In this document: positions 5,550 to 53,405 of the stretch, in pieces
How the letters are laid out: the number at the start of each line of letters is the position of its first letter
How positions within the stretch are numbered: position 1 is the first letter of the stretch
Source: a phage
DNA: 64,000 nucleotides
Reading direction: 5' to 3' (one strand)
Sequence record: PZ583742.1
Position numbers and translations under genes: made by a program
Notes under the pieces: generated by a model
Seen by the model: the letters and a program-made list of their open reading frames with translations, nothing else
Databases searched by the model: none
Told to the model about the DNA's origin: nothing

Positions 5550-6136
5550 TGGCCCTTTATGAACCCGGGTGCATGGGTGTTGATGTAAACTTCATCCGCC
5601 GGGCAGAAAATGCGGGTATAATTGTATCAAGAGACGAATTTATGATTACCAAAAAATATTGGGCGAACCTTGATGATGGTGATGAAGGAATCAAGGTGGA
5701 AAATGTTGATTGGTCGCGATGCAATCGTCATGTGAAAGAGCTTTTAATTAAGGAATATAAAATGGGATACATCATTAATGGGCATCAACCAGAACCACTC
5801 AAAGAACAGACACCCGACCCATTAATTTCTTATAGCAAGAAATATGGATTTCGTACCTGGAGTGATGAATTTGATAAATTAATTTGTTCCAGGTTTTATG
5901 CCTGGGCTGGAATCTTATTTTTACCATTCCTGTGGTTTTTCCTGACAGGTAAAAATGAAGCACCTGTAGCTGTAATGGGCGCGTGCTTTTCTACTGCTCT
6001 TGCTGGACTTATTGCATCATTTTTATGGACTATGGTTATTGAAGTGCCTTTTCGTATTTCTAAAGTTAAAAAGGTGTACGACGATATCACTAAGAAAAAT
6101 ACATTGAACTCTTTTATTGAGGAATGCCGTAAATGA
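5549..6136 (+). CDS. membrane protein
   Basis: ATG overlaps upstream stop (TAATG); C-terminal hydrophobic segments; C-terminal SFIEEC tail. Confidence 0.5.
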   Translation: MALYEPGCMGVDVNFIRRAENAGIIVSRDEFMITKKYWANLDDGDEGIKVENVDWSRCNRHVKELLIKEYKMGYIINGHQPEPLKEQTPDPLISYSKKYGFRTWSDEFDKLICSRFYAWAGILFLPFLWFFLTGKNEAPVAVMGACFSTALAGLIASFLWTMVIEVPFRISKVKKVYDDITKKNTLNSFIEECRK

Positions 6137-17605: not shown

Positions 17606-18352
17606 TTATGAAGTCACTGTTTGTTCGGCTACTAACAATGCGGAGGTTATTGTAAAGTTGCCGCCATTTGGCATAACAGTTATAGCTGTACCATTGGTTG
17701 CCATTGCCTCATCTTTATCAATGCTAAAGAACGTTGTAAAAGACAAAATATCTGTAGCATTTTCCGGACGATTCTGTATATAAGTGTTTCCGTTGGTTCC
17801 AACGAAATTTAATGTTATACTTCGAGCTTGCGAGGCTCCTGCAAAATTACCAATAAGGTTGAGTTTAAACATTAGGCTTCTGTCTTGGTTATATGGCCAC
17901 AACTTATCATCAGTGGTTCTAAAAAACGGAGATAGAGTCCCTGCAGTCGGTGGAATCCCCTTTAAAACACTAATTATGTTTGAAGTCGTACCATTAGTTA
18001 ATAGAACGTTTATACCACTCCAAAACACCTCGGATTTTTCCCTCTTTCCTGCTGTATCAGTTAAAAAATCATCAACAGTTCCTGTATTTCCCAAGTCAAG
18101 CCATATCTGATAAGAAGATTTTCCATCCCCACCCGGTTCTCCTTTTGGTCCGGGTACACCCGGTTCTCCTTTGGGACCAGGCGGACCCGGTATCTGAGTT
18201 TCCGAGCTGGACATAGTTTGGAAAAAACGCTCTTTGCTATCTGTAGGGGTATTCGGCAACACCATAGTAGAACCAAACAAATACCAATTATCAGCCAAGG
18301 CAGCCTGGACTTTTTCATTGAGTTCATCAACAGTTCTTCCGGATAAAATCAT
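17606..18352 (-). CDS. collagen-like repeat protein with tail-fibre-type motif and beta-rich C-terminal domain
   Basis: Minus-strand 248 aa ORF with RBS AAAGGAG 8 nt before ATG; seven G-X-Y triplets (GPPGPKGEPGVPGPKGEPGGDG) followed by KSSYQIWLDLGNTGTVDDFL, then N/T/S/G-rich C-terminal domain. Confidence 0.7.
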   Translation of the reverse strand: MILSGRTVDELNEKVQAALADNWYLFGSTMVLPNTPTDSKERFFQTMSSSETQIPGPPGPKGEPGVPGPKGEPGGDGKSSYQIWLDLGNTGTVDDFLTDTAGKREKSEVFWSGINVLLTNGTTSNIISVLKGIPPTAGTLSPFFRTTDDKLWPYNQDRSLMFKLNLIGNFAGASQARSITLNFVGTNGNTYIQNRPENATDILSFTTFFSIDKDEAMATNGTAITVMPNGGNFTITSALLVAEQTVTS

Positions 18353-36101: not shown

Positions 36102-36509
36102 ATGAACAACGTAACTGCTAAAGATATCCAAGTTAAAACCATCCGCACCGACGCTAACCCACACAACCAAAACCGCATCCGCAAATCCTGGGTCCTGGCA
36201 TGTGATGAAGCATCTGCTGCCCGTCTGCAGTCTCTGCCGCAAGAAATTAAATTCATGCTGTACGGTGTGATTGATACTGATGTATCTGATAAGTGGATTG
36301 AACTGATGCGTAATCACTACAACGATTCACTGGCTGCTGGTGCTAAACTGGTTATCGACCGTGACGGTTCCGAACGTCTCGAAGATGATTACTGTGTTGA
36401 CTTCGACGACCACCTGGTCCAAGCTGGTTCTATTATTGCTGCGCAACTTCCAGAGTATATTGAATCTCTTCCGGAAGCTATCCGCAAACAAATGGCAGTT
36501 GTTGCGTGA
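36102..36509 (+). CDS. rpbA: RNA polymerase-binding protein RpbA
   Basis: 135 aa ORF between 46/45.2 and 45 as in T4; RBS AGAGAGAA. Confidence 0.6.
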   Translation: MNNVTAKDIQVKTIRTDANPHNQNRIRKSWVLACDEASAARLQSLPQEIKFMLYGVIDTDVSDKWIELMRNHYNDSLAAGAKLVIDRDGSERLEDDYCVDFDDHLVQAGSIIAAQLPEYIESLPEAIRKQMAVVA

Positions 36510-37393
36510 ATTTGATTTATAAAATAACCTTTATAACAAGGGAACAAAATAATGAATTCCCTTGTTATTATATTGGTTCAAAGGTTGATACGACATTTAA
36601 TGGCCAAAATATTCTCGATAAAAATAATAAAATTTATACAGGTTCTCCGAATTCAAAATATACTACGCTGTATAATGAATTAATTGATAGCGGTGACTAT
36701 ATTGTTACTATCATTGGGGAAACAAAACAGGACCCAAGGAAAATAGAAAATATTTTTCAAATGTCAGTTAAAGCTGTAACCAATGAGAAATACTTTAATA
36801 AAACGTATGCACACGACAAAAGCCGCTATGATGCTCCTGGATATGCTCCATACCGAAACTTGAAAACGGGTAAAGTTGTTAAATTACATCCATCTGAACT
36901 TACATCTGATTATGTTGGTGTTCGTAAAGATTGTTCAATTTCAGATAAGCACATTCAAGCAATTAAAGACTTCCAAAAAGAATATTGGACTGACGAAGCT
37001 CGACAAGCAAGGTCTGTTGAAGTCAAAAATCGTTATAAAGATGTTGAGTATGCTTTAAAATTCAAAGCTATAATGAATACATCTGAAGTATATGAAAAAT
37101 ATTTAAAATCAATTACTGAATATTGGAATAATTCAGATAATAGAATAAAGGCTTCAAAACGAGCAACCGAACGAAATGCCAACCCTGAATTTAAAGAAAA
37201 ATTTAGGAAATCTAAAGCAAGAGGAACCTGGTTACAGTATGAAGATGAACTTAAAGCATTGTGGAATGCTTTAGGCCAACCAGGGTATATTAAGTTTAGA
37301 AAACACGCCATTGAACATGGGTTTAATGATGAAAACTATCAGGGTGCAATCCGGTCCTGGTCAAATTATTATGTTAATAGGAAAATGAAATGA
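36506..37393 (+). CDS. GIY-YIG-like homing endonuclease (Seg-like), start uncertain
   Basis: From GTG 36506 the N-terminus is NLIYKITFITREQNNEFPCYYIGSK (GIY..YIG-like); basic C-terminal half; inserted between rpbA and 45, which are adjacent in T4; first in-frame ATG is far downstream. Confidence 0.5.
   Translation: MNLIYKITFITREQNNEFPCYYIGSKVDTTFNGQNILDKNNKIYTGSPNSKYTTLYNELIDSGDYIVTIIGETKQDPRKIENIFQMSVKAVTNEKYFNKTYAHDKSRYDAPGYAPYRNLKTGKVVKLHPSELTSDYVGVRKDCSISDKHIQAIKDFQKEYWTDEARQARSVEVKNRYKDVEYALKFKAIMNTSEVYEKYLKSITEYWNNSDNRIKASKRATERNANPEFKEKFRKSKARGTWLQYEDELKALWNALGQPGYIKFRKHAIEHGFNDENYQGAIRSWSNYYVNRKMK
36535..36566 (+). promoter_or_regulatory. perfect 10-bp inverted repeat (hairpin) inside the 5' end of the Seg-like ORF
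   Basis: aacaagggaa (36535-36544) / ttcccttgtt (36557-36566), 12-nt loop. Confidence 0.5.
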
Positions 37394-40362: not shown

Positions 40363-43077
40363 ATGCAAGAATTTTATTTAACTATCGAACAAATCGGTGA
40401 CAATCTGCTTGAACGATACATTGACAAGAACGGTCATGAACGTGTTCGTGAAATCCCTTATGCTCCATGCTTGTTTATGCACGCCCGGGAAGGCCAGGCT
40501 GCAAAGTATACAGACATCTATAATAAAGGTTGTGTGAAAAAAGAATTCGATTCCATGCGTGATGCATCCCAGTGGATGAAGCGAATGAATGACATGGGCC
40601 TCGAAGTTATGGGTATGGATGACTTTAAACTCGCATACTTGTCCGACCGTTACCCACACGAAATCAAATATGATTCAAGTAAAATCCGTGTTGCTAACTT
40701 CGATATCGAGGTGACATCTCCTGATGGGTTCCCTGAACCGTCTGAAGCACGTCACCCTATTGATGCCCTGACGCACTATGATTCGGTAGACGATAAATTC
40801 TATGTCTTTGACCTTTTGGGCTCACCATACGCCACTGTGGAGCAATGGTCTATTGATATTGCTGCTAAGCTGCAGGAAGACGGTGGTGATGAAGTCCCTG
40901 AAGAAATCCTGGAAAAAATTGTTTATATGGCTTTCGATTCAGAAGAAGAAATGCTCCAGCAGTATTTGGTATTCTGGAACGAGAAAACTCCGGTTATGTT
41001 AACCGGTTGGAACATCGAGAAGTTTGATATTCCATATATCTACAACCGTCTTAAAAATGTATTTGGTGAAGCTACGGCAAAACGTCTGAGCCCACATCGT
41101 CGTACAAAAGTTAAGGTCATTAACAACGGCTTTGGTGAAGAACAAGAAATCATTCAGATTCTGGGTATCTCTGTTCTGGATTATCTGGACCTGTATAAAA
41201 AGTTCAGCTTCACAAACCAACCGTCTTATTCGTTGGATTATGTTGCGGAATCTGAACTGGGTGTTGGTAAACTCCCGTATGATGGTCCGATTTCTAAACT
41301 GCGTGAATCAAATCACCAGCGGTATATTTCTTATAACATCATCGACGTTTATCGTGTTGTGCAGATTGACCGTAAGCGGCAGTTTATTAACCTGAGTCAG
41401 TCAATGGGTTATTACGCAAAAATGCAGATTCAGTCTGTATTCAGCCCAATCAAAACTTGGGATGCGATTATCTTTAACAGCCTGAAGACTCAAAACAAAG
41501 TCATTCCGGAAACCAAATCGCATGTTCGTCAATCGTTCCCTGGTGCATTTGTTAAGGAACCTATTCCGAACGCGTACAAATATGTGATGAGCTGTGACTT
41601 AACATCTCTGTATCCAAGCATCATCCGACAGATTAATATCAGTCCAGAAACGATTGCCGGTTCATTTGCCCCAGCGCCGATGTATGAATACATCGCAGGA
41701 ACTGCTGACCGTCCATCTGATACATTTAGTTGTGCTCCAAATGGTATGATGTATTTTAAAGATGTTGCGGGTATTATTCCGACAGAAGTCACCAAGGTGT
41801 TTAATCAGCGTAAAGAGCACAAAGGCTATATGCTTGCGGCTCAACGTAATGGTGAACTGATTAAGGAAGCTCTGCGTAATCCAGGAACTGGCACAACCGA
41901 ACCAGAAGTTGATTATCGTCATGACTTTGATGACAATATGAAAACGGCCCTGCATGGTCTGAATCAAACAGTCCTGAATGGTATGTTGTACAAAGCGCAG
42001 ATGGAAGAAGTTGCAGGCATGACCGCACAGATTAACCGTAAACTGCTTATCAACAGTTGTTATGGCGCTCTGGGCAATATCTGGTTCCGTTACTTTGACC
42101 TGCGAAATGCAACCGCGATTACATCTTTCGGACAACTTGCATTGCAGTGGATTGAGCGTAAAGTTAACGAATACTTCGATAGTGTCTGTGGGACAAGCGG
42201 CGAAACTTATGTGTTCTATGGCGATACTGACTCCATTTATATCCAGTGCGATAACCTGATTAAAAAGGTTGGTGGCGAATCTAAATTCCGTGATACAAAC
42301 CACCTGGTTGACTTCATGGACAAGTTTGCGAAAGACCGTCTGGAACCGGCAATCGATAAAGCTTTCCGTGAGCTGGCTGAATACATGAACAACAAACAGC
42401 ACCTTATGTTTATGGACCGTGAAGCGATTGCATGTCCTCCGCTGGGTTCTAAGGGTGTGGGTGGATTCTGGACGGCGAAGAAGCGTTATGCACTGAACGT
42501 GTACGATATGGAAGGCACACGATATGCTGTTCCGAAATTGAAAATCATGGGTCTGGAAACTCAAAAGTCGAGTACTCCAAAGGCATGTCAGAAAGCTCTG
42601 AAAGAATGTATCCGCCGTATGCTGCAAGAAGGTGAAGAATCTCTGCAGACATACTTCAAGGAATTCAATAAGGAATTTAATGAGCTTAACTACATGACCA
42701 TCGCAGGTGTATCATCGGTTAACAACATCCAGAAATATAATGAAGGCGGTTTCCCTGGATTTAAGTGCCCGGCTCATATCAAAGGTGTGCTTGCATATAT
42801 GCGTGCAACTAAAGGTCTGAAGACTGTTCCACAAATCATGGAAGGGGAAAAGGTGTATGTACTTCCTCTTAAAGTCGGTAACCCGTTTGGTGAAACCGTG
42901 ATTGCATGGCCATCTGGGATTGAACTCCCGATTGAAATCCGTGACCAGGTTCTGCAGTGGATGGACTACAACATACTGTTCCAGAAGACTTTTGTTAAGC
43001 CATTAACAGGTTTCTCTGAAGCTGCAAAGGTTGATTACGAAAAGAAAGCAACTCTTTTTGATATGTTTGACTTTTAA
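40363..43077 (+). CDS. 43: DNA polymerase gp43 (family B)
   Basis: 904 aa; N-terminal EFY..IE..G.N..ERYID.NG.ER.RE; exo motifs VANFDIEVT, YNIIDV; polymerase motifs SLYPSII, KLLINSCYGALG, YGDTDS. Confidence 0.97.
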   Translation: MQEFYLTIEQIGDNLLERYIDKNGHERVREIPYAPCLFMHAREGQAAKYTDIYNKGCVKKEFDSMRDASQWMKRMNDMGLEVMGMDDFKLAYLSDRYPHEIKYDSSKIRVANFDIEVTSPDGFPEPSEARHPIDALTHYDSVDDKFYVFDLLGSPYATVEQWSIDIAAKLQEDGGDEVPEEILEKIVYMAFDSEEEMLQQYLVFWNEKTPVMLTGWNIEKFDIPYIYNRLKNVFGEATAKRLSPHRRTKVKVINNGFGEEQEIIQILGISVLDYLDLYKKFSFTNQPSYSLDYVAESELGVGKLPYDGPISKLRESNHQRYISYNIIDVYRVVQIDRKRQFINLSQSMGYYAKMQIQSVFSPIKTWDAIIFNSLKTQNKVIPETKSHVRQSFPGAFVKEPIPNAYKYVMSCDLTSLYPSIIRQINISPETIAGSFAPAPMYEYIAGTADRPSDTFSCAPNGMMYFKDVAGIIPTEVTKVFNQRKEHKGYMLAAQRNGELIKEALRNPGTGTTEPEVDYRHDFDDNMKTALHGLNQTVLNGMLYKAQMEEVAGMTAQINRKLLINSCYGALGNIWFRYFDLRNATAITSFGQLALQWIERKVNEYFDSVCGTSGETYVFYGDTDSIYIQCDNLIKKVGGESKFRDTNHLVDFMDKFAKDRLEPAIDKAFRELAEYMNNKQHLMFMDREAIACPPLGSKGVGGFWTAKKRYALNVYDMEGTRYAVPKLKIMGLETQKSSTPKACQKALKECIRRMLQEGEESLQTYFKEFNKEFNELNYMTIAGVSSVNNIQKYNEGGFPGFKCPAHIKGVLAYMRATKGLKTVPQIMEGEKVYVLPLKVGNPFGETVIAWPSGIELPIEIRDQVLQWMDYNILFQKTFVKPLTGFSEAAKVDYEKKATLFDMFDF

Positions 43078-43146
43078 GTGTTTACAACGGCAATGGATTG
43101 CCGTATGATTACCTCATCAACTGATGAATAACTTAAGGATATTAAA

Positions 43147-43389
43147 ATGGAAACATTAATTGCGGGTACTGTTGTTCTTGGTGCGGGTTCTTTCTTCCTG
43201 GCTGCACTGGCATATTTTCTGCCGTGGATTATCGCGCTGCTGCGTGGTACCAAAAGTAATTGTGGAATCTTCTTTGTTAACCTCCTGTTAGGTTGGACAA
43301 TGGTCGGATGGTTTATTGCATTTATCTGGGCACTCGTTGCTGAACGTAAATCAAACGCACAAGTAATTATCATCAAGGAAGCAAAATGA
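43147..43389 (+). CDS. imm: Imm-like small membrane protein
   Basis: 80 aa, two TM helices; immediately downstream of gene 43 as T4 imm. Confidence 0.5.
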   Translation: METLIAGTVVLGAGSFFLAALAYFLPWIIALLRGTKSNCGIFFVNLLLGWTMVGWFIAFIWALVAERKSNAQVIIIKEAK

Positions 43390-43529
43390 AGATAATTACA
43401 ATTATTGTACTGATTGCATTTTTTAGTATGTCAATCTATTGGGCAATAATGACTCCGCATATGATTCCAACTTTAATTTTGGGTTGGGTATTTTTGGGGC
43501 TCCAAGCCCGCTATGAATGTTTTAATTGA
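43386..43529 (+). CDS. small membrane peptide (47 aa)
   Basis: ATG overlaps upstream stop; hydrophobic. Confidence 0.3.
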   Translation: MKIITIIVLIAFFSMSIYWAIMTPHMIPTLILGWVFLGLQARYECFN

Positions 43530-43539
43530 GGAAAATACA

Positions 43540-44043
43540 ATGAAAAAGTTAGCTATCGCAGCTGTTATGCTGCTATCTGGTTGTGCTTACCAGGGTGATG
43601 TTGTTAATGCCAACGAGATTGGTAAAGCGCGAATTGCTGCAGACCGTCAGGTGCATAATGGTTCCTTTGATTTCAAAGGCGGTACTGGACTTATCTACAA
43701 ACGCGACAACAATCAATGTGGAAACAACTGCGCGAAATATGCTCAACAAGAAATTGAGTACAAACGCGAGCAAGCTGCGAAGCATGACGAAATCATTGCC
43801 AAGCTGGAAGCAGAAACTAAGCGACAAAATGACCTGGATACTGTTAACCAGATTTCACAGGTCTGCATGTCATATATCAATATGCAGATAAACATCATGC
43901 GCGCAGAAGCTTATCAGGCAGCGGAGACGGGTTCTCCAAAAGCTAATGAGTACCGCGATATGTATCAGCGTTCTGCTCAAAACCGTCTGAGCTATATTAA
44001 TAAATGTGTGGCTAAAGAGAAAGCACGCCAAGGTATTAACTGA
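43540..44043 (+). CDS. lipoprotein with coiled-coil region
   Basis: ATG 43540 after GAGGAAAA; signal peptide plus lipobox MKKLAIAAVMLLSGC; occupies the T4 42/beta-gt slot. Confidence 0.6.
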   Translation: MKKLAIAAVMLLSGCAYQGDVVNANEIGKARIAADRQVHNGSFDFKGGTGLIYKRDNNQCGNNCAKYAQQEIEYKREQAAKHDEIIAKLEAETKRQNDLDTVNQISQVCMSYINMQINIMRAEAYQAAETGSPKANEYRDMYQRSAQNRLSYINKCVAKEKARQGIN

Positions 44044-44150
44044 TGTTATTATTACTTCTGATTGTTGTAACAGTAATTGGTTTGTTGCTATTAGAAAAGC
44101 GTAATAAGCATTTGAATGAAGAAAACTGGAAACGTGGTAACGTTTACTAA
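44043..44150 (+). CDS. small membrane peptide (35 aa)
   Basis: ATG overlaps lipoprotein stop (TGATG); hydrophobic N-terminus. Confidence 0.25.
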   Translation: MLLLLLIVVTVIGLLLLEKRNKHLNEENWKRGNVY

Positions 44151-44177
44151 ATTGCTCTGAACTGCGAGAAGAATATT

Positions 44178-44306
44178 ATGATTGGTATGTTATTGATTAG
44201 CCTATGGCTGTTGTCTGCATTTGGTATTGGGTTTATGTACTGGTGGGACAAACGTCAGACCCGGAAGATTGTTGAACGTGCAATTAATCGTGGATTCAAT
44301 CGTTAA
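44178..44306 (+). CDS. small membrane peptide (42 aa)
   Basis: ATG 44178; TM segment LLISLWLLSAFGIGFMYWW. Confidence 0.3.
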   Translation: MIGMLLISLWLLSAFGIGFMYWWDKRQTRKIVERAINRGFNR

Positions 44307-44385
44307 TTGCTCTAAAAATACAGTGATATAATTATCCTATCTTAAACCTGTGAGAAAAATATAATGGTGCCTATGGAAAAAATGA

Positions 44386-45564
44386 ATGTCTATTGCAGAT
44401 TTGAAATCCCGTTTGATTAAAGCTTCTACATCCAAAATGACCGCGACTCTTACCAAGTCCAAGTTTTTTAATGATAAAGATGTAGTTCGTACAAAAATCC
44501 CGATGCTGAACATTGCAATCAGCGGTGCACTAGATGGTGGTATGCAGTCAGGTTTGACTATTTTTGCTGGTCCGTCAAAACACTTTAAATCCAATATGGG
44601 TTTAACGATGGTCTCTGCATATATGAACAAATACCCCGATGCAATCTGTTTGTTCTATGATTCAGAATTTGGTATCACAGAAGCCTATCTTCGTGCAATG
44701 AAAGTTGACCCGGAACGTGTTATCCACACACCAATCCAGTCGGTTGAACAATTGAAAGTTGATATGGTTAACCAGCTTGAAGCAATTGAGCGTGGTGAAA
44801 AAGTCATTATCTTTATTGACTCAATCGGTAACATGGCATCGAAAAAAGAAACAGAAGATGCGATGAACGAAAAAGTCGTTGGCGATATGACTCGTGCTAA
44901 ATCCCTGAAATCTCTGTTCCGTATTGTTACCCCGTATTTTAGTATCAAGGATATTCCTTGTGTCGCGGTTAACCATACAATCGAGACGATTGAGATGTAT
45001 AGCAAAACCGTTATGACCGGTGGCACAGGTGTTATGTATTCCGCGGACACCGTATTCATTATCGGCAAACGTCAGATTAAAGAAACTGGTAAAGAACTTG
45101 AAGGCTTCCAATTTGTTCTGAACGCCGAAAAATCTCGTATGGTCAAAGAGAAAAGTAAATTCTTCATTGATGTAAAATTCGATGGCGGTATTGACCCGTA
45201 TTCTGGCCTGCTTGATATGGCAATGGAAATCGGATTTGTGGTGAAACCAAAAGTTGGTTGGTATAACCGTGAATATCTTGATGTTGAGACCGGTGAAATG
45301 GTCCGCGAAGAAAAATCATGGCGCGCAAAAGATACTAACTGCACCGAATTCTGGGGCCCATTGTTCAAACACGAACCTTTCCGTGACGCAATCAAACGCC
45401 ATTACCAACTGGGTGCAATCGATAGCAATGCTGTTGTTGATGCCGAAGTTGATGCGCTTATTGCCTCCAAGGTTGAAAAATACACTGCTCCTGAAGGTAA
45501 GACAAAACCGTCTGCTGCAGATATTGAAAACGATTTAGATATGATGGAAGACCTTGATGAATGA
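44386..45564 (+). CDS. uvsX: recombinase UvsX (RecA-like)
   Basis: DLKSRLIKASTSK.TA.LT.SKFFN.KDVVRTKIPM.NIA.SG..GGMQSGL..AGPSK.FKSN.GLTMVS.YM..YPDA.CLFYDSEFGIT is near-identical to T4 UvsX. Confidence 0.96.
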   Translation: MSIADLKSRLIKASTSKMTATLTKSKFFNDKDVVRTKIPMLNIAISGALDGGMQSGLTIFAGPSKHFKSNMGLTMVSAYMNKYPDAICLFYDSEFGITEAYLRAMKVDPERVIHTPIQSVEQLKVDMVNQLEAIERGEKVIIFIDSIGNMASKKETEDAMNEKVVGDMTRAKSLKSLFRIVTPYFSIKDIPCVAVNHTIETIEMYSKTVMTGGTGVMYSADTVFIIGKRQIKETGKELEGFQFVLNAEKSRMVKEKSKFFIDVKFDGGIDPYSGLLDMAMEIGFVVKPKVGWYNREYLDVETGEMVREEKSWRAKDTNCTEFWGPLFKHEPFRDAIKRHYQLGAIDSNAVVDAEVDALIASKVEKYTAPEGKTKPSAADIENDLDMMEDLDE

Positions 45565-48934: not shown

Positions 48935-49228
48935 ATGAAAAAGTTATTAATCGCAGCAATTCTTACCGTAGCATCATGTGGTACAGCTCCAGTTACTGCT
49001 GGACTTGATAAAGACCTTTGTGAGTGGTCTATGACTGCGGACCAGACTGATGTTGAACATCAGATTTATGCCGATATCATGAATATTACTAAACGTGACC
49101 GCCCAGATATGGTTAAAGAAGTATCTGACCAATTGACTTCTGGTGACGTTATGCAGTATAACTATGTTCTGTATTGCGATGCTTCATTTGACAACAGCAA
49201 GATTGTTCAATGGGTTACAGGTGAATAA
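48935..49228 (+). CDS. lipoprotein
   Basis: Signal peptide plus lipobox MKKLLIAAILTVASCG; RBS GAGGAGA. Confidence 0.5.
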   Translation: MKKLLIAAILTVASCGTAPVTAGLDKDLCEWSMTADQTDVEHQIYADIMNITKRDRPDMVKEVSDQLTSGDVMQYNYVLYCDASFDNSKIVQWVTGE

Positions 49229-50627: not shown

Positions 50628-51656
50628 ATGTCATATATTGATAAAGAATTTGCAGTCAGAGCTTTATCGTATCAACCACGTTATAGAGAAGTCACCGGGA
50701 GCACATTTAAAGCAAACTGTCGTTGCAAGGTTTGTGGGGACTCCCAGAAAGATTCACACAAGGCTCGATTCTGGGCGTATACTAATCCGACTGATGGCGC
50801 GGTTTACGTGAAATGTTTTAACTGTGACTACTCCACGCATATAAGCAAATACATAAAAGAGTTTGAGCCGGATTTACACCGGGAATATATGGTTGAGAAG
50901 TATAAGGAGAATGCATTTGGGCGACAACGCACTGAAGTTGCAGAAGCTCCGAAAGAACCAGAAAAAACTCCGGTTATTGAGCAGCTTGCTTTTTGTGAAA
51001 GACTCGATACTTTACCAGAAGCACATCCGATAATTAAGTATGTAAAAAGTCGGTGTATTCCGAGCAATGTTTGGAACCGGTTATGGTTTACAAACAAATG
51101 GCCTGCATTAGTTAACTCCGTTAATCCTGGGACGTATAAGAATGAAACGAATGAACCACGCTTGGTTATTCCTATCTTCAACGGCAAAAAAGAAATCGAA
51201 TCTTTCCAAGGACGAGCTCTTCGCAAAGATGCACCACAAAAATATATCACAATCAAAGCTCACCCAGAAGCTTCCAAAGTCTATGGCGTAGACAAGATTG
51301 ATGAGCGTAAACGCGTATGGGTAATGGAAGGTCCAATTGATAGTTTGTTTATCCCTAACAGCATTGCGATAACCGGTGGAACATTAGCATTGGAAGCTGT
51401 TCCTTACCCAGAAACCAGAGTATGGGTGATGGATTCAGAAGCAAGACATCCTGATACGATTAAACGTATGAAGAAATTAGTCGATGCAGGAGAAGCTGTT
51501 ATGTTCTGGGACAACGCACCGTGGCATACGAAAGATATAAATGAAATGATTAAATCGGAAGGAGCAACGCCTGAGCAAATTGAAGCCTATATGAATGATA
51601 ATATTGCACAAGGTTTAATGGCAAAACTTCGATTATCCAAATATGCAAAAATATGA
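50628..51656 (+). CDS. 61: DNA primase gp61
   Basis: N-terminal zinc ribbon CRCKVCGDS..x..CFNCDYS; TOPRIM-like VWVMEGPIDSLF; size and neighbourhood as T4 gp61. Confidence 0.9.
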   Translation: MSYIDKEFAVRALSYQPRYREVTGSTFKANCRCKVCGDSQKDSHKARFWAYTNPTDGAVYVKCFNCDYSTHISKYIKEFEPDLHREYMVEKYKENAFGRQRTEVAEAPKEPEKTPVIEQLAFCERLDTLPEAHPIIKYVKSRCIPSNVWNRLWFTNKWPALVNSVNPGTYKNETNEPRLVIPIFNGKKEIESFQGRALRKDAPQKYITIKAHPEASKVYGVDKIDERKRVWVMEGPIDSLFIPNSIAITGGTLALEAVPYPETRVWVMDSEARHPDTIKRMKKLVDAGEAVMFWDNAPWHTKDINEMIKSEGATPEQIEAYMNDNIAQGLMAKLRLSKYAKI

Positions 51657-52420
51657 ATTATCTAAAATTATATAATAAATTAATAGACAAAGGCCTCGCA
51701 AGGGGCCTAAACAAAAAGAATATCCCATTTTATACGGAGTCCCATCATATACTACCAAGGTGTTTGGGTGGACCTGACACCGAAGATAATTTGGTATTGT
51801 TATCAGCAAGAGAACATTTTATTGCACATTTGTTACTTTTTAAAATTTATCGACTTTCTAAATTAATGTTTGCTATACACCGGATGTGCGGTGACAAATT
51901 TGATAGCGCAAAATATGAATGGATGCGAAAAGAACATAGTAAAGCCGTTAGTGAACATATGTCAAACTTATGGAGTCAATCCGAGTTTAAAGACAAAATG
52001 TTAATTGCTTTACACAAGCGACATAACGACCACCCTGTGTCTGATAAAACCAAAAGTAAAATAGCTAACTCATTAAAATTGTATTATCAAAATAATCCAG
52101 TTACTGATGAACAACGGCAAAAGAATCGCGATGCACAAATGAGAAGATTTAAAGAAAATCCGCAAACCGAAGAAACGAAAAAGTTGCGGCGAGAAGCATG
52201 CCGAAAGGCAACTGGAACACCGGTTTGTAGATGCGATGAATTTGGTAATATACTTGAAAAGTATAATTCGGGAGCTGAGGCAAAGGAATTATTACAATTG
52301 GCGGGCAATACTCAAAATATATACACAGCTTGTAAAAGAAATAAAAAGACAGGCCGAATGTATAGGTCAAACGGCCATTTTTGGAAGTATCAAGACGAGG
52401 AAGGGATTCCGGTAAAGTAA
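51653..52420 (+). CDS. HNH homing endonuclease (Mob-like)
   Basis: HNH motif ESHHILPRCLGGPDTEDNLVLLSAREHFIAH; start overlaps gene 61 stop (ATGA); basic repeat-containing C-terminal half. Confidence 0.75.
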   Translation: MNYLKLYNKLIDKGLARGLNKKNIPFYTESHHILPRCLGGPDTEDNLVLLSAREHFIAHLLLFKIYRLSKLMFAIHRMCGDKFDSAKYEWMRKEHSKAVSEHMSNLWSQSEFKDKMLIALHKRHNDHPVSDKTKSKIANSLKLYYQNNPVTDEQRQKNRDAQMRRFKENPQTEETKKLRREACRKATGTPVCRCDEFGNILEKYNSGAEAKELLQLAGNTQNIYTACKRNKKTGRMYRSNGHFWKYQDEEGIPVK

Positions 52421-52802: not shown

Positions 52803-52886
52803 ACATCCCCCTTTCTTGTATTTATGCTTTAAACCAATACGATATAATTAACATACAAACAACATGAATTGATAAGGAAAAATATA

Positions 52887-53405
52887 ATGGCTCATTTTAA
52901 TGAATGTTCTCAACTGATTGCTGGTGTTGATAAAGCTCAGGGCGCTTATGATAATGCAATTTTTGAAGGCACTGACCCACTGCAAGTTATGCTTGATATG
53001 CAGAAATCATTGCAGGTTCGTCTGGCTAAAGAAAAACCAGAATATAACGAACATCCTGATAACCTGGCGACTGCTGGTGAAGTTGTTACCTGGCTCCGCA
53101 ACCAGAAAGATTATATTGATGATGAATTCCGTGAACTGATTACTGCATTAGGTGGCATGTCCAATGGCGAGAAAGCTGCCTCGGCCGTATGGAAACCATG
53201 GAAAGCACAACATGGCGAAATGCAGCAAACCCTGATTAATGATTTATCTCCTGAAGACCAGCTCGAAATTAAATTTGAGATGATTGATATCCTGCACTTT
53301 GTCCTGAACATGTTCCACGGTCTTGGACTGACTGCAGAAGAAATCTTTAAATTGTATTATCTGAAAAATGCCGAAAACTTTGCTCGTCAAGACCGAGGTT
53401 ATTAA
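52887..53405 (+). CDS. 56: dCTPase/dUTPase gp56
   Basis: MAHFNEC..L..GVDKAQ; DPLQVMLDMQ; IDDEFRELI; SPEDQLEIKFE..D..HFVLNMF.GLG..AEEIFKLYYLKN.ENFARQDRGY is near-identical to T4 gp56. Confidence 0.93.
   Translation: MAHFNECSQLIAGVDKAQGAYDNAIFEGTDPLQVMLDMQKSLQVRLAKEKPEYNEHPDNLATAGEVVTWLRNQKDYIDDEFRELITALGGMSNGEKAASAVWKPWKAQHGEMQQTLINDLSPEDQLEIKFEMIDILHFVLNMFHGLGLTAEEIFKLYYLKNAENFARQDRGY

Follow-up and report, generated by a model that had tools for sequence, protein, structure and literature searches.

The interval between gene 43 and uvsX

The interval between gene 43 and uvsX, and the five open reading frames (ORFs) that occupy it, were analysed in a 64,000-nucleotide stretch of phage DNA (sequence record PZ583742.1; the whole stretch is called the window below). 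The phage belongs to Gaprivervirus (Straboviridae, Tevenvirinae) and is a VR7-like relative of T4. Positions 42900–44500 were 96–98% identical over their full length to Escherichia phages TH44, 212, pEC-M719-6WT.2, RZ, TH40 and MN01, and 94–98% identical, with internal gaps, to VR7, VR20, VR26, SP18 and others. The local gene order was as in T4 (45, 44, 62, regA, 43, five ORFs, uvsX, 40, 41), with gene 43 (40363–43077) on the left flank of the slot and uvsX (44386–45564) on the right. All five ORFs reported in a preliminary description of this DNA were recovered on the + strand between these genes: imm (43147–43389), a 47-residue ORF (43386–43529), a lipoprotein gene (43540–44043), and ORFs of 35 (44043–44150) and 42 codons (44178–44306).

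The ORFs were tightly packed, the imm stop overlapping the start of the 47-aa ORF as ATGA and the lipoprotein stop overlapping the start of the 35-aa ORF as TGATG, and three of the starts, those of imm, of the 47-aa ORF and of the lipoprotein gene (ATG at 43540), had Shine–Dalgarno-like sequences ahead of them. Coding was assessed by comparison of six or seven Gaprivervirus genomes, in which variable codons were scored as synonymous-only or amino-acid-changing. Synonymous-only codons prevailed in imm (20:12), the 47-aa ORF (6:2), the lipoprotein gene (65:39) and the 42-aa ORF (5:1), and the 35-aa ORF had four of each. The ORFs are more than chance reading frames and are under purifying selection, with the reservation that the evidence is weak for the 35-aa ORF. 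Three of the five matched PHROG families at E ≤ 1e-26. Hydrophobic segments and a lipobox were seen as previously described, and the slot encodes solely envelope-directed (membrane or periplasmic) proteins. An Rfam scan of 42800–44600 gave nothing meaningful.

An early-type sigma-70 promoter (GTTTACA-N17-TATGAT, 43080–43109, + strand) was predicted from the consensus just past the gene 43 stop, with 10 of 12 positions matching in the promoter scan and the GTTTACA element in the T4 early −35 form. A 7-bp hairpin between the hexamers (43087–43104; −9.3 kcal/mol, z = −1.45) was weak alone and not statistically unusual; taken together, the predicted promoter and the hairpin after gene 43 resemble the promoter-early stem-loop cassettes of T4-type phages. 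Neither late (TATAAATA) nor MotA-box promoter motifs were found within the slot. From these motifs we infer that the slot genes are transcribed early, from the promoter after gene 43.

The imm product has 80 residues with two hydrophobic segments (windows at residues 3–34 and 40–65) and is homologous to the superinfection-immunity inner-membrane protein of T4. It matched Pfam PF14373 Imm_superinfect with 64.2 bits (cutoff 27.9; E 1e-17; residues 23–63) and phrog_1039 'immunity to superinfection' (E 1.9e-30), and was 52% identical to T4 Imm over its full length (83 columns, E 3e-24). What had been introduced as an Imm-like protein with two transmembrane segments is a true Imm homologue, and records of VR7, SP18 and other phages already carry the gene under the name imm. 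The window and T4 proteins share family, length class, the two hydrophobic segments and an early-gene site beside gene 43; T4 imm comes after imm.1, whereas the window imm comes before the lipoprotein gene. In T4, Imm (inner membrane) and periplasmic Spackle render the cell refractory to entry of DNA from secondary T-even-type phages (PMC7677548), and by homology the window Imm is likely to keep the DNA of superinfecting phage from entering. A homologue of spackle (sp), the second known T4 exclusion gene, was located at 48935–49228 (+ strand; phrog_1586 'spackle periplasmic', E 3.4e-43), and its product was 71% identical to Mosigvirus Sp.

The 47-aa product, '42.1' in VR7, is a small membrane protein of the Y02C family with a hydrophobic N-terminus. 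It matched phrog_3610 over its full length (E 7.6e-27), has homologues in RB69 ORF054c, JS98 orf44, CHI14 gp044 and EcS1 ORF042, and was matched by tblastn (E 1e-9) to a 48-aa ORF that lies in T4 between imm and 42. Comparison with T4 Y02C, RB69 ORF054c and VR7 gp42.1 gave full-length matches with a conserved tail, MIPTL-GW-LQ-K(Y/F)(E/Q)CFN, and no notable difference. In the precomputed annotation of metagenome contigs the counterparts are labelled PF26865 Phage_T4_Y02C; searches of a local Pfam copy, which may lack this model, and of NCBIfam gave no match for the 47-aa peptide. The T4 ORF, at about 5728–5874 on the minus strand of the T4 locus from NC_000866, is without annotation in that RefSeq record; it lies ahead of gene 42 and overlaps the stop codon of imm.

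The lipoprotein has 167 residues, with a signal peptide, a lipobox (LSGC, lipid Cys15) as claimed earlier, four further Cys and no Asp at position +2. Its start was set at the ATG at 43540, behind GAGGAA; an upstream ATG at 43513, which would give a longer reading, is not kept in the relatives DK-13 and VR7. The mature part contains a beta-hairpin (GTGLIY) and an NQCGNNC motif. An AlphaFold2 model from 19 family sequences (mean predicted local distance difference test score, pLDDT, 80) comprised a disordered leader, a short helix, the beta-hairpin at GTGLIY, a 69-residue helix (61–129) and two return helices, which makes the earlier label 'coiled-coil' a reasonable one. On this model the protein would form an antiparallel helical hairpin about 10 nm long, and from the helical register C109 and C156 probably form a disulfide staple. 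Asp is missing from position +2 in every lipobox-bearing member of the family, and by the established +2 rule of the Lol pathway this predicts sorting to the outer membrane, where the lipoprotein would be lipid-anchored.

By position the lipoprotein corresponds to T4 Imm.1. The window protein matched phrog_1754 with E 6.6e-47 over residues 1–161 and T4 Imm.1 matched it with E 6.1e-43 over its full length; the full-length profile match, the lipobox and the position by gene 43 and imm place the lipoprotein in PHROG 1754. Direct alignment of the two proteins by tblastn, BLASTP and hhalign was limited to residues 1–31 (96% probability in hhalign), a stretch made up of signal peptide, lipobox and some 14 residues of the mature protein, where G-D-V-V-N-A-N-E-I-G-K is aligned with G-P-V-V-N-Q-S-D-V-G-K. 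The two thus share a lipoprotein leader followed, after the lipid Cys, by G-x-V-V-N-x-x-(D/E)-(V/I)-G-K, have four mature Cys each with 45 residues between the second and third, and adjoin imm and gene 43. They differ in length (125 aa in Imm.1 and 167 aa here), in an inverted order relative to imm, in C-terminal domains that are not alignable, and in that the window lipoprotein has no DUF5481 match. It is a probable distant relative and positional counterpart of Imm.1, not a demonstrated DUF5481 member. A BFVD search with the low-confidence Imm.1 model (pLDDT 61) returned Imm.1 relatives only. The RefSeq T4 label 'iduronate sulfatase' for Imm.1 looks like an annotation error.

Searches of Pfam and NCBIfam with the lipoprotein gave sub-threshold matches only, and a word-indexed protein search returned only close relatives. 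The family was found in 122 phage records and, by exhaustive search, in 17 clusters among 1.84 billion representatives. It was phage-borne in every context examined; two metagenome contexts were readable and T4-like, and a third metagenome contig was too short for context.

The slot in related phages and the missing modification cassette

The T4 slot reads 43, imm.1, imm, Y02C ORF, 42, b-gt, segA, uvsX. Its earlier description as 43, imm.1, imm, 42 and b-gt was right and is extended here by segA and the 48-aa ORF. In JS98, five other Dhakavirus genomes and one metagenome contig the order was 43, imm, Y02C, lipoprotein, modification cassette, uvsX. The Dhakavirus cassette, of about 4.3 kb, contains a nucleotidyltransferase fusion, a sugar isomerase, an RB69 ORF045c-like gene (for which 'thymidylate kinase' is a RefSeq label only), an RB69-type hydroxymethylase and two more genes, and in most Dhakavirus-type loci an unannotated 43-aa homologue of the 42-aa ORF lies between the cassette and uvsX. 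Dhakavirus (JS98, VR5) and the window therefore have in common imm, Y02C and the lipoprotein (about 50% identity) at the left and a 42-aa-type ORF before uvsX, and differ in the hydroxymethylase/arabinose cassette, which is present in Dhakavirus and missing from the window.

Other genera carry parts of the same arrangement. Karamvirus has 43, a 74-aa ORF, the lipoprotein, 42, two glucosyltransferases and uvsX. Winklervirus, Kagamiyamavirus, PEi20, PM2 and two uncultivated genomes have 43, lipoprotein, Y02C, an RB69-type cassette and uvsX, with an arabinose-5-P isomerase, where annotated, between lipoprotein and Y02C, and no imm. RB69 has 43, isomerase, Y02C, cassette and uvsX. At every locus examined the lipoprotein gene was a neighbour of gene 43, an arrangement shared by at least six Tevenvirinae genera. 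Among loci with the lipoprotein in a viral contig collection, a hydroxymethylase cassette was present in the same slot in 13/13 of those from outside Gaprivervirus and was missing in the three Gaprivervirus loci only.

In Mosigvirus an Imm.1-type lipoprotein gene and imm were found together away from gene 43, directly upstream of spackle. In Escherichia coli O157 typing phage 3 (Mosigvirus) the lipoprotein gene, imm and spackle are consecutive at 1341–2376, near dmd, and all exclusion-related genes are therefore clustered in this genus. The joint move of the two genes to a place beside sp speaks for Imm and the neighbouring lipoprotein being functionally connected. In the 141-kb 'complete genome' of phage DCP80 (PQ671644.1) the gene 32 region directly abuts the lipoprotein gene at its 3' end, a junction that reflects either a large deletion or a misassembly.

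Alignment of the window slot with that of JS98 gave 68% identity over 825 nt at the left end, from imm to the first half of the lipoprotein gene, and 85% at the right end, across a final 136 nt that runs into uvsX, with nothing alignable between the two ends. Gene 42 and the beta-glucosyltransferase gene had been stated to be absent, and neither of them, nor an RB69-type hydroxymethylase, was found in the 64-kb window. The search was taken genome-wide by use of VR7 over 1–28.5 kb and 68–169 kb and of the window for the remainder. By tblastn, T4 gp42, b-gt, RB69 ORF045c–053c and JS98 orf42 had no match in the window or VR7, the sole signal being a weak thymidylate-synthase-family match to Td (E 0.003). 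A relocated gene 42 was considered and rejected, there being no copy in these parts of VR7 or in the window. Remnants of 42 or b-gt, named earlier as a possible sign of simple gene decay, were found at neither the DNA nor the protein level. Over VR7 and the window combined, Gaprivervirus has no T4- or RB69-type dCMP hydroxymethylase, glycosyltransferase or arabinose-pathway gene.

A gp56-type dCTPase (pyrophosphohydrolase) gene is present in the window at 52869–53405, and VR7 has alc, denA and denB. Gaprivervirus has been reported to have no known hydroxymethylcytosine (hmC) synthase, yet to retain dCTPase, Alc, DenA and DenB (PMC8056088, PMC12115623). DNA of VR5 (Dhakavirus) is glycosylated and escapes BREX, and VR7, the DNA of which is described as unglycosylated with modified cytosines, is restricted by BREX more than 10^11-fold (PMC6326788). 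The clean absence of the cassette agrees with the published lack of an hmC synthase and with the BREX sensitivity and unglycosylated DNA of VR7.

The 35-aa and 42-aa ORFs encode single-pass membrane peptides, each with an N-terminal hydrophobic segment and a basic tail (RKIVERAINRG in the 42-aa peptide), and neither had a family match in Pfam, NCBIfam or PHROGs. The 35-aa ORF was found in 12 phage records, every one of them Gaprivervirus, and was missing from VR7, DK-13 and EAWsc9; the 42-aa ORF was present at ≥95% identity in 17 records and missing from EAWsc9 and VR25, and its unannotated 43-aa homologue lies immediately 5' of uvsX in JS98 and other Dhakavirus. A census of 33 Gaprivervirus records that cover the slot gave both ORFs in 7/33, the 42-aa ORF only in 9/33, the 35-aa ORF only in 4/33 and neither in 13/33. 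In every slot variant the last ORF before uvsX, whichever it was, was followed by AATTGCTCT(A/G)AA and an invariant uvsX leader. This junction repeat is represented in the window by AATTGCTCTAAA (44305–44316, + strand; copy 2 by position), which is invariant in 7/7 aligned genomes. A second repeat copy, AATTGCTCTGAA (44150–44161, + strand; copy 1 by position), directly 3' of the 35-aa ORF, parts it from the 42-aa ORF. The two ORFs are independent presence/absence cassettes, the pattern expected for shuffling at short AATTGCTCT repeats, and promoter-early stem-loop shuffling in T4-type phages may offer a comparison. An origin of the 35-aa ORF as a remnant of the Dhakavirus cassette was considered and rejected, as no similarity was found.

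Patchiness within one genus, the want of a family match and the 4:4 codon ratio would also fit a 35-aa ORF, and with less likelihood a 42-aa ORF, that is not a functional gene, having arisen as a by-product when cassettes were shuffled at the AATTGCTCT junctions, or being a mini-gene that is selfish or toxic. This seems rather unlikely, since the 42-aa ORF has a codon ratio of 5:1 and a Dhakavirus homologue at the same position, and since a plausible ribosome-binding site or translational coupling can be made out for each of the two.

Origin and possible role of the envelope genes

Given the gene identities, conservation, synteny and clean cassette absence observed, we hold with good confidence that the interval is the conserved early 'envelope' edge of the Tevenvirinae 43–uvsX slot, without the cassette that normally follows it. 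This confidence extends to its origin: the trio of imm, Y02C and lipoprotein appears to be inherited from a common ancestor with Dhakavirus, and Gaprivervirus would then have lost the adjacent 4.3-kb cassette; that it never gained the cassette would be the less parsimonious course. The module itself is ordinary, being the usual imm neighbourhood of T4-like phages, with near-identical copies in GenBank, and it would look odd only through loss of the cassette next to it. The slot pinpoints what Gaprivervirus is missing, namely the whole hydroxymethylase/sugar cassette, of which neither a remnant nor a copy at another site was found, and sharpens a question of the literature: which cytosine modification, if any, is present in Gaprivervirus, and by which enzyme it is made.

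Read as such an edge, the interval might work as follows. The early-type promoter past gene 43 would drive the tightly packed gene run. Imm, placed in the inner membrane, would halt the DNA of later T-even-type phages short of the cytoplasm, as expected from homology with T4 Imm, and the Y02C-family membrane peptide would be made next. The lipoprotein would be anchored in the outer membrane, its hairpin of about 10 nm, with the probable disulfide staple, reaching into the periplasm. The two optional single-pass membrane peptides would be added in the window genome, their ORFs moving in and out at the AATTGCTCT junction repeats. In the weakest step of this scheme, the lipoprotein and the peptides may aid exclusion at the level of the envelope or resistance to lysis from without.

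That the lipoprotein in particular serves as an envelope accessory, either to exclusion or to a resistance against lysis from without, is put forward tentatively; the joint relocation of imm.1 and imm beside sp in Mosigvirus strengthens this proposal, and the occurrence of the lipoprotein without an adjacent imm weakens it. A bolder version, in which Imm, Y02C and the outer-membrane hairpin lipoprotein make up one trans-envelope exclusion device, with Imm.1-type lipoproteins as a third component beside Imm and Spackle, is distinctly doubtful. If it were true, the lipoproteins might stand in the way of the tail tube or the DNA conduit within the periplasm, and specificity would be adjusted by the optional peptides of 35 and 42 aa. 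The lipoprotein and Y02C are widely conserved by gene 43 and, on the promoter prediction, early; with the joint move of an Imm.1-type lipoprotein and imm in Mosigvirus, this offers a testable case for exclusion parts beyond Imm and Spackle.

Several points weigh against reading the interval as an inherited envelope edge with a role in exclusion. No experiment is known to have assigned a role to Imm.1, to Y02C, to this lipoprotein or to either peptide, whatever the phage, and the promoter and localisation calls are consensus-based predictions. Pfam PF17578 DUF5481, which T4 Imm.1 itself matched with 239 bits, gave no match to the lipoprotein at E ≤ 1; profile–profile comparison, with Imm.1 alone and with a Mosigvirus relative added, gave nothing beyond the N-terminal 31 residues; and fold searches gave no cross-match between the lipoprotein and Imm.1 families, the Imm.1 model having been made from a single sequence (pLDDT 61). 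In Karamvirus, Winklervirus and Kagamiyamavirus the lipoprotein gene has no imm next to it, which indicates no strict dependence on a neighbouring Imm, and Y02C lies within the arabinose cassette in several genera, so that its link to Imm may be merely positional.

An early lipoprotein with a predicted outer-membrane anchor, found without adjacent imm in three genera, might instead be a stand-alone receptor- or porin-masking protein that blocks adsorption or channel opening in the manner of T5 Llp or Cor, which are likewise phage-encoded, early and predicted to reside in the outer membrane. Llp is described in a preprint as a small lipoprotein of the outer membrane inner leaflet that binds FhuA (bioRxiv 10.64898/2026.03.26.714494). 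Llp and Cor are small globular FhuA binders, whereas the window lipoprotein is modelled as an elongated helical hairpin, and no homology was seen: it resembles neither Llp nor Cor in sequence or fold, searches of BFVD and PDB folds gave nothing relevant, and its match to the Cor PHROG covered signal-peptide residues 1–17 only (E 0.022). T-even-infected cells moreover keep adsorbing secondary phage, as is needed for lysis inhibition, and masking of a receptor is on these grounds improbable.

The preliminary description had suggested that a dedicated superinfection-exclusion or envelope-modifying module stands here in place of the DNA-modification genes, that is, an acquired module occupying the place of gene 42 and the beta-glucosyltransferase gene. 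Its factual parts stood: the slot proteins are all membrane or periplasmic, Imm is a real homologue and the modification genes are missing. The words 'in place of' did not. Counterparts of three of the five genes occur in the T4 slot or in the slots of cassette-bearing relatives, and imm, Y02C and the lipoprotein reside beside modification genes in T4, Dhakavirus, Karamvirus and others, so that a substitution is not supported. The cross-genome comparison of the locus that had been proposed was run, and in Dhakavirus the trio is followed by the cassette; the window slot is this arrangement minus the cassette. The slot-specific content amounts to 77 codons (the 35-aa and 42-aa peptides), which are optional within the genus. 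Contradicted by synteny, replacement by an acquired module is highly improbable, and the conserved edge without its cassette remains the preferred reading.

The lipobox and the helical periplasmic domain of the lipoprotein also recall a lysis component (an o-spanin or unimolecular spanin, as had been raised earlier), and the T4 spanins PseT.3 and PseT.2 are likewise periplasm-spanning, PseT.2 with a lipobox, but this was rejected as barely conceivable: VR7 retains pseT.2 and pseT.3 as separate genes elsewhere, which differ in architecture and timing, the lipoprotein has no C-terminal membrane segment, its neighbours are peptides of 35–47 aa of which none has an N-terminal anchor and a long periplasmic domain, and its gene lies in a predicted early transcription unit between replication genes.

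Other features of the window

Three further ORFs of the window were recorded. On the minus strand at 17606–18352, antisense within the early nrdC-like region, a 248-aa ORF contains an Sf6-type tail-needle-knob domain (Pfam Phage_tail_NK 2.4e-31, phrog_1030 3e-66). Between rpbA and gene 45, at 36506–37393 (+ strand), lies a 295-aa ORF of which the first 100 residues match the homing-endonuclease PHROG 7504 (E 3.9e-14); the same interval of the close relative pEC-M719-6WT.2 has no ORF of such size, just a 192-bp ORF upstream of rpbA, and the 295-aa ORF is therefore probably a mobile insertion. Directly 3' of the primase gene 61, at 51653–52420 (+ strand), a 255-aa homing-endonuclease-like ORF was found (phrog_655, E 6e-45), with a sub-threshold match to Pfam HNH.

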